Part shown: piece by piece, positions 1,156-4,510 of the stretch | Numbering within the stretch: the stretch's first letter is position 1 | Layout of the letters: every line of letters begins with the position of its first letter | NCBI RefSeq assembly: GCF_013315695.1 | Contig: NZ_CP054353.1 | Strand: one strand, 5' to 3' | Origin: Escherichia coli | Lineage (GTDB): Bacteria > Pseudomonadota > Gammaproteobacteria > Enterobacterales > Enterobacteriaceae | DNA length: 64,000 nt | Position numbers and translations under genes: made by a program | Notes under the pieces: model-generated | The model's input: only the letters and a program-made list of their open reading frames with translations | The model's database searches: none | Told to the model about the DNA's origin: nothing

Positions 1156-1815
1156 ATGAGCGAACAAATCACGTTTGCCACCAGCGATTTTGCCAGTAAC
1201 CCGGAACCACGTTGCCCCTGCATTTTGCTGCTGGATGTTTCTGGTTCTATGAACGGTAGACCCATTAATGAACTTAACGCCGGATTGGTTACCTTTCGCG
1301 ATGAGCTGCTTGCCGACCCGCTGGCCTTAAAAAGAGTGGAACTCGGTATTGTGACGTTCGGCCCAGTGCATGTGGAACAACCCTTTACCAGCGCCGCTAA
1401 TTTTTTCCCGCCCATCCTGTTTGCCCATGGGGATACACCAATGGGCGCCGCCATTACCAAAGCCCTGAATATGGTTGAGGAGCGCAAACGTGAGTATCGC
1501 GCCAATGGTATTTCCTATTATCGTCCGTGGATTTTCCTGATTACCGATGGCGCACCAACCGATGAGTGGCAGGCTGCTGCCAACAAGGTGTTTCAGGGGG
1601 AAGAAGATAAGAAGTTTGCCTTCTTTTCCATCGGTGTTCAGGGGGCGGATATGAAGACGCTGGCCCAAATCAGCGTTCGTCAGCCTTTGCCTCTTCAAGG
1701 ATTACAATTCCGCGAACTATTTAGCTGGTTATCCAGTTCGCTGCGTTCGGTTTCCCGCTCCACGCCGGGAACGGAAGTTGTACTGGAAGCGCCAAAAGGC
1801 TGGACGTCAGTGTGA
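1156..1815 (+). CDS. yegL: von Willebrand factor A (vWA) domain protein YegL
   Basis: 219-aa ORF, AAGGAT RBS, vWA-like DxSxS motif (LLDVSGSM) near the N-terminus. Confidence 0.9.
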
Positions 1816-2573
1816 GCTGGCGTCTGGTTTATGCATCAGCCGTTGGAACGTCGCACATCAGCGCTGACTTGTCTTGCCAGGATGCCTGCCAGATGCAGGT
1901 TGCCTGGCTAGAAGACCAGCAGCCATTATTGTCGGTATTTGTCGCTGATGGCGCAGGCAGCGTCTCGCAGGGAGGCGAAGGTGCGATGCTTGCCGTCAAT
2001 GAAGCGATGGCTTATATATCGCAAAAAGTGCAGGGTGGGGAATTGGGGCTTAATGATGTCCTCGCAACGGATATTGTACTGACTATTCGTCAGCGATTTT
2101 TTGCCGAGGCAGAGGCCAAAGAATTAGCGGTTCGCGATTTTGCCTGCACATTTCTGGGGCTGATTTCATCGCCTAACGGCACATTGATTATGCAGATTGG
2201 CGATGGTGGCGTGGTGGTAGATTTGGGGCACGGTTTGCAATTGCCGCTCACGCCGATGGTGGGTGAATATGCCAACATGACGCATTTCATTACCGATGAA
2301 GATGCCGTTTCCAGACTGGAAACTTTCACCAGCACTGAGCGTGCGCATAGAGTTGCAGCATTTACGGATGGTATTCAGAGACTGGCGTTAAATATGCTGG
2401 ATAATTCTCCGCATGTGCCTTTCTTTACCCCGTTTTTCAATGGACTGGCGTCAGCAACGCAGGAACAACTCGATTTATTACCTGAATTGTTAAAGCAGTT
2501 TTTGTCCAGCCCGGCGGTAAACGAGCGTACGGATGATGATAAAACGTTGGCACTGGCTATGTGGTTACCATGA
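1812..2573 (+). CDS. yegK: PP2C-family Ser/Thr protein phosphatase (YegK)
   Basis: 253-aa ORF with GTG start overlapping the yegL stop (GTGA); recognised as the YegK phosphatase. Confidence 0.9.
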
Positions 2574-4510
2574 AACCCACTTTATATACTGCTACTGGTG
2601 AGTGCGTTACGCCAGGCCGTGAACTGGGCAAAGGCGGTGAAGGTGCGGTTTATGATATCGAGGAGTTTGCCGATAGCGTCGCCAAGATTTATCACACGCC
2701 GCCACCCGCCTTAAAACAGGACAAACTTGCCTTTATGGCTGCGACAGCTGACGCGCAGTTGTTGAATTATGTCGCCTGGCCGCAGGCAACGCTTCACGGT
2801 GGACGAGGCGGAAAAGTAATCGGTTTTATGATGCCAAAAGTTTCTGGTAAAGAACCGATTCATATGATCTATAGCCCGGCACATCGTCGTCAACGTTACC
2901 CTCATAGTGCGTGGGATTTTCTACTCTATGTTGCGCGCAATATTGCTTCATCTTTTGCTACGATTCACGAGCACGGGCACGTCGTGGGTGACGTAAACCA
3001 GAACAGCTTTATGGTAGGTCGCGACAGCAAAGTAGTGTTGATTGATAGCGACTCCTTTCAGATTAACGCCAATGGCACGCTGCATTTATGCGAAGTCGGC
3101 GTGTCGCATTTTACGCCGCCAGAGCTACAAACCTTGCCATCATTTGTCGGCTTTGAACGCACCGCGAATCACGATAATTTTGGCCTTGCGTTGCTGATTT
3201 TTCACGTCTTGTTTGGTGGGCGGCATCCTTATTCCGGTGTACCGCTTGTCTCTGATGCGGGTAATGCACTGGAGACGGATATTGCCCATTTCCGTTATGC
3301 CTACGCGTCAGATAATCAGCGACGTGGTTTAAAACCGCCGCCACGATCTATTCCGCTGTCGATGTTACCGGGCGATGTTGAAGCCATGTTTCAGCAGGCA
3401 TTCACGGAAAGTGGCGTGGCAACCGGGCGTCCGACGGCAAAAGCGTGGGTAGCGGCACTTGATTTACTACGCCAACAGTTAAAGAAATGTACCGTTTCGG
3501 CAATGCATGTTTATCCCGGTCATTTGGCTGACTGCCCGTGGTGTGCGCTGGATAATCAAGGCGTTATCTATTTTATTGATCTCGGCGAAGAGGTCATTAC
3601 CACCAGCGGTGATTTTGTGCTGGCGAAAGTCTGGGCGATGGTGATGGCGTCAGTAGCACCGCCAGCATTGCAACTGCCATTACCCGATCATTTCCAACCG
3701 ACTGGCAGGCCGCTTCCTTTAGGCCTGTTACGGCGTGAATACATCATTCTGATTGAGATCGCACTGTCAGCGTTATCGCTGTTGCTTTGCGGCCTTCAGA
3801 CAGAACCACGTTATATTATTTTGGTTCCTGTGCTGTCGGCTATCTGGATTATTGGCAGCCTGACAAGCAAAGCGTACAAAGCAGAAATCCAGCAACGCCG
3901 TGAGGCGTTTAATCGTGCGAAAATGGACTATGACCATTTAGTCAGCCAGATCCAACAGTTGGGCGGGCTGGAAGGTTTTATCGCCAAACGGATGATGCTC
4001 GAAAAAATGAAGGACGAAATTCTTGGGTTACCGGAAGAAGAAAAGCGCGATCTGGCAGCACTTCAGGACACCGCAAGGGAACGGCAGAAGCAGAAGTTTC
4101 TGGAGGGATTTTTTATTGATGTTGCCTCTATTCCCGGCGTTGGCCCTGCGCGTAAAGCGGCGTTACGGTCCTTTGGTATTGAAACGGCGGCAGACGTTAC
4201 CCGACGGAGCGTTAAGCAAGTAAAAGGTTTTGGTGATCATCTGACCCAGGCGGTTATCGACTGGAAAGCGAGTTGCGAACGCCGTTTTGTGTTCAGGCCG
4301 AATGAAGCGGTAACGCCAGCAGACAGACAAGCGGTAATGGCGAAAATGACCGCCAAACGACATCGGCTGGAATCGGCGTTGACTGTCGGTGCGACAGAGT
4401 TGCAGCGATTCCGCCTTCATGCTCCAGCACGGACCATGCCGTTGATGGAGCCGCTACGTCAGGCGGCAGAAAAACTGGCTCAGGCGAAGGCTGATTTAAG
4501 CCGCTGCTGA
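2561..4510 (+). CDS. yegI: Eukaryotic-like Ser/Thr protein kinase YegI, with hydrophobic segments and a C-terminal extension
   Basis: 649-aa ORF from GTG 2561. An alternative ATG at 2570 overlaps the yegK stop (ATGA), so the true start may be 2570. Kinase-like N-terminal domain (GKGGEGAVYDI...). Confidence 0.9.
   Translation: MVTMKPTLYTATGECVTPGRELGKGGEGAVYDIEEFADSVAKIYHTPPPALKQDKLAFMAATADAQLLNYVAWPQATLHGGRGGKVIGFMMPKVSGKEPIHMIYSPAHRRQRYPHSAWDFLLYVARNIASSFATIHEHGHVVGDVNQNSFMVGRDSKVVLIDSDSFQINANGTLHLCEVGVSHFTPPELQTLPSFVGFERTANHDNFGLALLIFHVLFGGRHPYSGVPLVSDAGNALETDIAHFRYAYASDNQRRGLKPPPRSIPLSMLPGDVEAMFQQAFTESGVATGRPTAKAWVAALDLLRQQLKKCTVSAMHVYPGHLADCPWCALDNQGVIYFIDLGEEVITTSGDFVLAKVWAMVMASVAPPALQLPLPDHFQPTGRPLPLGLLRREYIILIEIALSALSLLLCGLQTEPRYIILVPVLSAIWIIGSLTSKAYKAEIQQRREAFNRAKMDYDHLVSQIQQLGGLEGFIAKRMMLEKMKDEILGLPEEEKRDLAALQDTARERQKQKFLEGFFIDVASIPGVGPARKAALRSFGIETAADVTRRSVKQVKGFGDHLTQAVIDWKASCERRFVFRPNEAVTPADRQAVMAKMTAKRHRLESALTVGATELQRFRLHAPARTMPLMEPLRQAAEKLAQAKADLSRC

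Follow-up and report, generated by a model that had tools for sequence, protein, structure and literature searches.

The yegL–pphC–yegI triad of Escherichia coli, a candidate TerY-P-type phosphorylation switch

Escherichia coli has very few Ser/Thr kinases, and for one of them, YegI, neither a substrate nor a signal is known. Its gene closes a co-directional triad at positions 1156–4510 (+ strand) of the 64,000-nt E. coli stretch studied here, hereafter the window, where it is preceded by the genes of a von Willebrand A (vWA) protein, YegL, and of a PP2C-type phosphatase, PphC. What might these three proteins do together? The genes, the picture of a vWA–PP2C–kinase operon, the enzymology, the membrane topology of YegI and a polymorphism involving yegJ were all published beforehand, as was the anti-phage activity of TerY-P triads of other subtypes; since genes, enzymology and operon are in print, the finding as such was already known. 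As the original prediction from this DNA had it, the genes are individually named and the role of the unit is poorly defined: the literature characterizes the enzymes singly, with substrates and physiological role unknown.

We read the locus, with a probability of about 0.5, as the chromosomal copy, in Escherichia, of a widespread and mobile TerY-P-type three-gene phosphorylation switch with a role against invaders. New in the present analysis are the delimitation of a large subtype with a membrane-tethered helix-hairpin-helix (HhH) kinase that is invisible to PADLOC, the unusual degree to which YegL and the vWA/PP2C gene overlap are conserved, concrete residues to mutate, and the split version of the triad in K-12.

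A three-gene unit and its TerY-like vWA protein

All three reading frames lie on the + strand, to which the coordinates below refer unless stated otherwise. The first, yegL (1156–1815; ATG start, 219 aa), codes for the TerY-family vWA protein; pphC, also named yegK (1812–2573; GTG start, 253 aa), codes for the PP2C-type Ser/Thr phosphatase, and yegI (2570–4510; ATG start, 646 aa) for a membrane-anchored atypical Hanks-type Ser/Thr kinase, with a further in-frame GTG at 2561 as an alternative start. The two overlaps named in the original prediction can be read directly in the sequence, as GTGA at 1812–1815, where the pphC start meets the yegL stop, and as ATGA at 2570–2573, where the yegI start meets the pphC stop. 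Over its 3.4 kb, the DNA is 100% identical to that of E. coli NCTC86, whose RefSeq annotation lists the same three coding sequences with identical boundaries as yegL, pphC (yegK) and yegI. The folds first proposed for the products were likewise recovered: YegL matches Pfam VWA (E 1.2e-9), PphC matches PP2C_2 (E 3.5e-51), and a Foldseek search with an AlphaFold2 model of YegI returned PknB of Mycobacterium tuberculosis as its best match (E 1.9e-7, TM 0.70), together with a further 1873 kinase chains at E ≤ 0.001.

TerY-P, as defined by Anantharaman, Iyer and Aravind in 2012 and described in PMC11090510 and PMC4978471, brings together in one cassette a TerY-like vWA protein, a PP2C phosphatase and a Ser/Thr kinase. 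By hhalign, the YegL family aligns with TerY1–3 of the IncHI2 ter cluster over 185 columns (probability 99.8%, E 6.6e-30, 30% identity), and the alignment takes in the metal ion-dependent adhesion site (MIDAS), a WRP-x-VFL-x-TDG-x-P-x-D-x-W block and a C-terminal W-x-S-x-S motif. At the level of single sequences, tblastn showed YegL to be 29–36% identical to the three TerY paralogues carried by each IncHI2 ter plasmid; PDB sequence searches with YegL gave weak generic vWA matches and nothing stronger. Judging from these alignments, YegL is specifically TerY-like and not just any vWA protein, so that the locus has the TerY-P architecture: a single co-directional unit joins a MIDAS-bearing vWA protein of the TerY family to a PP2C phosphatase and a Ser/Thr kinase.

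The triad had been matched to TerY-P from the start, and this assignment stands for the architecture and the conserved gene order. It does not extend to the models of known systems. At E ≤ 0.01, neither YegL nor PphC nor YegI matched the PADLOC TerY-P models; the TerY model reached E 0.019 (12.5 bits) with YegL, PphC matched nothing, and YegI matched only the PD-T4-6 (E 2.6e-4) and MkoA kinase cores. Filing the locus as TerY-P of the type described by Gao et al. was rejected because of the missing PADLOC match. The C-terminal 300 residues of YegI are all helical and form no oligonucleotide/oligosaccharide-binding (OB) fold of the kind present in that form. The triad rather appears to be a TerY-P subtype distinct from the experimentally validated ones.

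How far does this subtype reach, and is it truly a unit of three? Scanning 1.84 billion representative proteins at E ≤ 1e-30 yielded 3220 clusters, the best 150 of which are almost all full-length (640–670 aa). A second scan, with one genome per species, found at least 535 relatives, and the best 80 loci were analyzed. They span beta-, gamma-, alpha- and deltaproteobacteria, Actinobacteria, Planctomycetes, Acidobacteria, Chlorobi, Synergistetes and methanogenic archaea (Methanomicrobia), and the vWA–PP2C–kinase order is kept in every one of the ∼80 loci with upstream sequence. The 4-nt overlap between the vWA and PP2C genes recurs in 70/82 related loci, with a 1-nt overlap in five more. In 32 of the 82, the PP2C and kinase genes overlap; at the remaining junctions the spacing mostly stays within ∼20 nt, and in most loci the junction ranges from −50 to +28 nt. 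Such conservation argues that the arrangement is not due to chance. Clustering of all open reading frames (ORFs) within ±10 kb of the same loci revealed no recurrent fourth gene family, from which we take the unit to consist of exactly three genes. Consequently, the neighbors in E. coli, the Hsp70-like yegD, alkA and ibs/sib, which do not recur within this distance, were ruled out as members. The overlaps speak for translational coupling, as originally proposed, at both junctions of the window; that part of the proposal fails at the pphC–yegI junction of ∼35% of E. coli genomes, which yegJ splits.

In several Burkholderiales-type loci we observed a highly conserved, basic protein of 69–70 aa (MKFGMRKPS...GWGWLTNPKRAAYNRVY...) immediately 5′ of the triad and outside its conserved core (L004, 5719–6474; L010, 5700–6501; L009, 6075–6284). 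In two such loci, the basic protein is followed by a secreted staphylococcal-nuclease-like protein.

Three proteins and a possible relay

Of the three proteins, YegL is under the tightest constraint. Its identity across bacterial and archaeal loci is 59–85%, and between E. coli and Methanoregula the values are 59–60% for YegL, 32–35% for PphC and 34–37% for YegI. In an alignment of 76 homologues, 51/219 columns are invariant, including all five MIDAS residues, D27-x-S29-x-S31 (1234–1248), T94 (1435–1437) and D131 (1546–1548). Some of the invariant columns fall inside the disordered N-terminal 16 residues and the C-terminal tail. Residues 1–16 are predicted to be disordered by AlphaFold2 (pLDDT, the predicted local distance difference test, below 50), and a conserved motif at residues 12–22 (1189–1221) holds the invariant N15, E17, R19 and P21. 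At the other end, a Ser-rich motif that closes with PxGW (residues 189–216; 1720–1803) has L192, S193, S195, S200, S202, P213, G215 and W216 invariant, with low pLDDT from residue 209. Termini that are conserved yet disordered typically mark docking or modification sites, and the Ser-rich tail is our candidate for a phospho-acceptor or docking tail. Together with the invariant MIDAS, these features make YegL the first substrate or partner to test.

PphC has the metal-binding aspartates of its family, D24, D46, D131, D186 and D241–243, all invariant in the homologue alignment, and its phosphatase activity is published as Mn-dependent. Among seven E. coli strains, it is the most polymorphic of the trio, with 36/254 varying sites.

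YegI is harder to recognize by sequence. The Pfam search gave no kinase match and only HHH_5 at residues 515–551, and its kinase core showed weak matches in NCBIfam and PADLOC models; Pfam Pkinase does match distant family members, though not E. coli YegI itself. The AlphaFold2 model, built from 80 homologues, is confident (pLDDT 93.7; predicted template modelling score, pTM, 0.79). The kinase domain covers residues 1–300 (2570–3469). Of the Hanks motifs, the G-loop (G20–G25), K39, the catalytic D141, D159 and E185 are present and invariant. Others are swapped, HRD for VGD, the motif VI Asn for Ser, giving a catalytic loop VGD...S, and DFG for DSD; the fold and the published activity are still those of a kinase. 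Over all 80 homologues, G22, E24, K39, D141, N143, D159, D161, S162, E185 and D202 do not vary. In published work, YegI autophosphorylates on serines with a preference for Mn and second-order, dimer-like kinetics, K39D and D141N are inactive, and PhoA-LacZ fusions place two passes through the inner membrane with both termini in the cytoplasm.

The best PDB sequence match of YegI residues 14–107 (window 2609–2890) was the N-lobe of NleH1, a type III secretion system effector kinase (4lrj, E 0.0095), a weak match that may reflect the minimal kinase N-lobe common to both.

What follows the kinase domain sets this family apart. Directly behind it, residues 304–329 (3479–3556) form a zinc-ribbon-like Cys/His motif, a putative metal site of two short strands and a helix in the model, in which C307, H313, C322, W324 and C325 are invariant in the 80 homologues; another 320 residues come after it. 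The hydrophobic segments and long C-terminal extension noted at the outset are evident in the AlphaFold2 model as two hydrophobic helices, 389–409 and 418–∼440, that build a membrane hairpin (residues 389–440; 3734–3889) within an extension of ∼300 residues, all of it helical. Indeed, in 72/75 homologues scanned the CPWC motif is followed by at least one hydrophobic window. The hairpin is succeeded by a cytoplasmic helical and coiled-coil region (residues 441–511; 3890–4102; modeled helices to 511), by the HhH region (residues 515–575; 4112–4294), with GVG and GFG hairpins and the prediction of a non-specific DNA binder, and by a long modeled helix of 63 residues (583–645; 4316–4504) with the conserved ending AAxxLAQAxADL. 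HHH_5 scores E 7.6e-4 and 1.4e-4 in YegI and, among 31 homologues, is found in 4 at E ≤ 0.001 and in 12 at E ≤ 0.1; the Pol IV thumb and the RAD51 N-domain also match weakly. A PDB sequence search with the C-terminus gave weak generic HhH and coiled-coil matches only. DNA binding by this region is thus predicted from sequence.

Relatives of the kinase domain were also seen with other C-terminal modules; on Sphingobium and Sphingomonas plasmids, for example, the module is a topoisomerase-type C4 zinc finger, and there are variants of 770–1160 aa. Such differing C-termini suggest that the end used for sensing or targeting is exchanged as a module.

From these parts, a relay can be sketched. The coiled-coil/HhH part of YegI may bind DNA at the membrane, such as foreign DNA on its way in or damaged DNA, and this binding would promote dimerization of the kinase and its escape from PphC. 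Once active, YegI would phosphorylate YegL at its invariant Ser-rich tail, further proteins of host or phage, or both; MIDAS-dependent binding by YegL could relay the signal, with protection against phages or other invading DNA as the output. In Escherichia, the cassette has become a fixed part of the core genome, and in the laboratory it is kept nearly silent. A link to DNA is supported by the HhH region and by an independent overexpression screen in which YegL and YegI each scored as DNA-damage-up, with damage raised at least 5-fold by overproduction of YegI. The HhH region thus leads us to predict DNA binding at the membrane, and the gene neighborhoods described below an anti-phage or anti-plasmid phenotype.

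PphC is published to dephosphorylate YegI, which holds the kinase switch off. The same reversal, with kinase and phosphatase genes side by side, would also suit a selfish or abortive module akin to toxin–antitoxin systems, with YegI as a growth-arresting kinase toxin, PphC as its antitoxin and YegL as a modulator, persisting by addiction or killing infected cells. The DNA damage upon YegI overproduction, the mode of action of KKP-type kinase–phosphatase modules (PMC11341870), the weak match of the YegI core to PD-T4-6 defence kinase models and the adjoining ibs/sib type I toxin–antitoxin loci would all be in keeping with it. We nevertheless think it improbable: yegJ uncouples the presumed antitoxin from its toxin in ∼35% of E. 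coli genomes with yegI retained, YegL, the best conserved of the three, has no role in a simple scheme of this type, and a TerY-P variant of P. aeruginosa protected its host without collapse of the culture (PMC10889362).

Neighborhoods, fixation in E. coli and competing explanations

If the cassette acts against invaders, its companions outside Escherichia might tell. In ten loci with precomputed Pfam annotation, canonical defence genes were counted within 8 kb and found in 6–7 of the ten (type I restriction-modification three times, GmrSD twice, Mrr twice, AbiH, BrxR, JetB, Abi_C and PLD). For ten further loci from different phyla, where only the four nearest ORFs were compared with PADLOC, 6/10 had matches: a full-length Avs2, Uzume UzuA, PDC-S01, a cytosine methyltransferase, mad2 and SoFic. 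In sum, ∼12/20 sampled loci lie in defence neighborhoods, which is suggestive of a defence role of the cassette family; for the subtype of YegL, PphC and YegI and for the E. coli copy, an anti-phage role would follow from these neighborhoods only.

The cassette is also mobile outside Escherichia, being found on megaplasmids of Pseudomonas, Cupriavidus and Ralstonia and, in one copy, next to Tn7-like tniQ/tniB. Three PHROGs families (phrog_28389, 37072 and 37888) match YegL, PphC and YegI end to end. A phage origin of the triad was considered and rejected, with a single weak match among 50,697 phage records; given this near-absence, the PHROGs families probably represent host DNA carried into prophage-derived input.

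Within E. coli, the picture is one of stability. The triad locus was found in 5416/5426 complete genomes, at least 80% of it in 5402, always between the ibs/sib units and yegD in the strains compared, and its GC content is ordinary for the species. Pairwise comparison of seven strains gave ratios of nonsynonymous to synonymous substitution rates (dN/dS) of 0.05 for yegL, 0.13 for pphC and 0.105 for yegI, as against 0.04–0.18 for flanking genes. Diversifying selection within the species, which we also considered, has no gene-level sign in these values.

These observations bear on our main alternative, a domesticated housekeeping module that responds to a trigger from within the cell, such as stationary phase, stress on the envelope or from metals, or DNA damage, and tunes host proteins by Ser/Thr phosphorylation without any conflict with phages or plasmids. 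Core-genome status, the fixed position between mdtA and yegD, purifying selection like that on flanking housekeeping genes, the typical GC content and a weak expression in stationary phase reported in the literature all agree with it, as do the stress and repair neighbors yegD and alkA, the DNA damage caused by overproduction, the 8/20 sampled loci that have no defence neighbor, and precedents of vWA proteins in Ser/Thr signaling operons such as Deinococcus DRA0331–0334 (bioRxiv 10.64898/2026.01.23.701218). It accounts less well for a wider distribution that is patchy and mobile, from megaplasmids to archaea, for a cassette that sits mostly among defence genes and has no conserved host gene in its company, and for the ∼35% of E. 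coli genomes that tolerate yegJ between pphC and yegI. We hold this explanation to be possible but on the unlikely side.

Could the triad simply be a relic in E. coli, acquired long ago and no longer expressed or used? In the literature, expression of yegLKI is almost undetectable in the laboratory and weak in stationary phase. The leader region between sibA and yegL (1010–1155) had no consensus sigma-70 promoter in a promoter scan, fitting this very low expression, and within 1156–4510 we found no promoters or terminators above chance and no Rfam RNA. A remnant would be in line with these features and with the disruption of the operon by yegJ in ∼35% of genomes. Against this stand the intact state of all three ORFs in 5402/5426 genomes, dN/dS values of 0.05–0.13, the retention of all catalytic and MIDAS residues and the published activity of the recombinant proteins. 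Intact frames and low dN/dS argue that the triad is being maintained and is not decaying, and we regard an inert remnant as very improbable.

The yegJ polymorphism deserves a closer look. Between 1899 and 1934 of the 5426 genomes (∼35%), K-12 included, carry an AT-rich insert of ∼730 bp with yegJ on the opposite strand between pphC and yegI (L001, a K-12-like strain, 4475–5199), where the window has the uninterrupted form with its site at 2570–2573. The insert, which encodes a signal-peptide protein, supplants the final codons of pphC and the initial ∼13 of yegI; a 2026 paper describes YegJ as binding RNase E and inducing yegD. Since K-12, the host of nearly all phage-defence assays, carries this split with altered protein ends, a function of the triad may have been missed. 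The coupled allele of the window is the one to test.

Several points weigh against the reading as an anti-invader switch. The unmatched PADLOC models imply that homology to validated systems is distant, so that their phenotype may not transfer. Fixation in 99.8% of the species with ordinary GC is atypical of a defence system, as defence genes usually differ between strains. Domain searches recognized no effector in the cassette, such as a nuclease or a pore, and the HhH match is weak (E ∼1e-4). A literature search returned no phage, plasmid or stress phenotype for the E. coli triad genes and no published phage assay of yegLKI, and the neighborhood survey of non-Escherichia loci, with 8/20 loci lacking a defence neighbor, had no matched control. 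Similarly, a structure prediction of the complex, suggested earlier as a check, did not yield a confident assembly: fused-chain AlphaFold2 modeling of YegL–PphC–YegI(1–340) folded the single domains well and ended at a pTM of 0.46, which, with a shallow paired alignment of 21 rows, is weak evidence either way.

Beyond the switch as such, we tentatively put forward a bolder version, which is itself rather doubtful. Here, the YegLKI type would be a large TerY-P subtype missed by defence finders (>3000 clusters at 50% identity in bacteria and methanogenic archaea), whose membrane-tethered, DNA-binding kinase would detect foreign DNA at entry and signal via YegL, and which in E. coli would be a silent core immune set, split in K-12 by yegJ. 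Should the cassette indeed defend, here would be a case of a species with a defence module fixed in its core genome, and its subtype would be one that is currently overlooked by PADLOC-style annotation.

As to the surroundings of the triad, its place between the ibs/sib repeats and yegD, as first described, was reproduced by SIB_RNA matches and by the NCTC86 annotation. On the 5′ side lie the start of mdtA and two ibs/SIB_RNA type I toxin–antitoxin units, with the SIB_RNAs on the − strand (532–674 and 861–1009) and the ibs ORFs on the + strand (547–603 and 876–935). On the 3′ side, the convergent yegD ends at 4523, 13 nt past the yegI stop, and is followed by alkA and dgcE. The number of ibs/sib units beside yegL varies by strain, from one in E2348/69 (with ISEc13 alongside) to two in the window and in K-12-like strains, three in strain 144, and four in a B strain and in ST2747. 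In 3/7 strains inspected, dgcE (window 6968–8824) is annotated as a pseudogene, owing to a truncation in E2348/69, a frameshift in strain 144 and an internal stop in W2-5. Among the genes compared, alkA (window 6009–6857) has the highest within-species dN/dS (0.18; 30/283 sites vary in the seven strains), exceeding both the kinase and the phosphatase.

Comparison with known systems

With PknB/PstP and PrkC/PrpC, the triad shares a Hanks-fold kinase side by side with a PP2C phosphatase, autophosphorylation in the activation loop and a reset by the phosphatase. YegI differs from these kinases in lacking HRD, DFG and the motif VI Asn, in place of which it has VGD, DSD and Ser, and in its preference for Mn. 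In addition, it has no extracytoplasmic sensor of the PASTA type, both its termini being cytoplasmic, and the vWA gene is an obligatory third partner. Stk2, PD-T4-6 and KKP (PMC11341870) likewise have a Ser/Thr kinase as their active principle, sometimes restrained by a phosphatase; they come without a vWA partner, membrane hairpin or HhH region, and the match between YegI and PD-T4-6 covers the generic kinase core.

Operons that combine a vWA protein with Ser/Thr signaling are known elsewhere. YegLKI differs from those of Sulfolobus and Deinococcus by having no FHA adaptor and by its gene order and kinase architecture. In Sulfolobus, where ArnA/ArnB are likewise a precedent in keeping with the housekeeping reading, the vWA protein ArnB goes with ArnA (FHA) and the kinases ArnC/ArnD and has been shown to be phospho-regulated. 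In Deinococcus, DRA0331–DRA0334 join a vWA gene to a Ser/Thr kinase of the eukaryotic-like kind as well as a PP2C phosphatase, and its vWA product has been put forward as a phospho-regulated partner (bioRxiv 10.64898/2026.01.23.701218).

Compared with the ter clusters of IncHI2 and related plasmids, which encode TerY1, TerY2 and TerY3, YegL has no TerY-C metal-binding extension. Nor are the triads linked to ter genes: no terZABCDE or TerD-family, terW/X or biosynthetic ter genes were found near the triad, either within ±10 kb of the 82 loci or in E. coli, where ibs/sib, mdtA and yegD are the neighbors.

TerY-P itself comes in several forms. One form, linked to CoCoNuT, has a kinase that ends in a zinc ribbon (PMC11090510). 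Another, that of Gao et al. 2020, has a kinase with an OB fold, is anti-phage and blocks T7-like phages, according to PMC11090510, PMC4978471 and PMC7699616. The variant from P. aeruginosa blocked Autographiviridae (PMC10889362); no P. aeruginosa proteins were among the YegLKI homologues that could link the two. YegI does not end at a zinc ribbon and has no OB fold; its chain continues through a membrane hairpin and a coiled coil to the HhH region. Furthermore, the Escherichia triad is a core gene cluster, and neither McrBC/CoCoNuT nor type VII secretion nor ter genes are attached to it. With the CoCoNuT-linked triads, it may have in common a Cys/His zinc motif after the kinase domain, a strand-strand-helix element in the AlphaFold2 model. 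With TerY-P at large, it shares the co-directional set of a TerY-family MIDAS vWA protein, a PP2C phosphatase and a Hanks-type kinase, and both are found beside restriction and defence loci.

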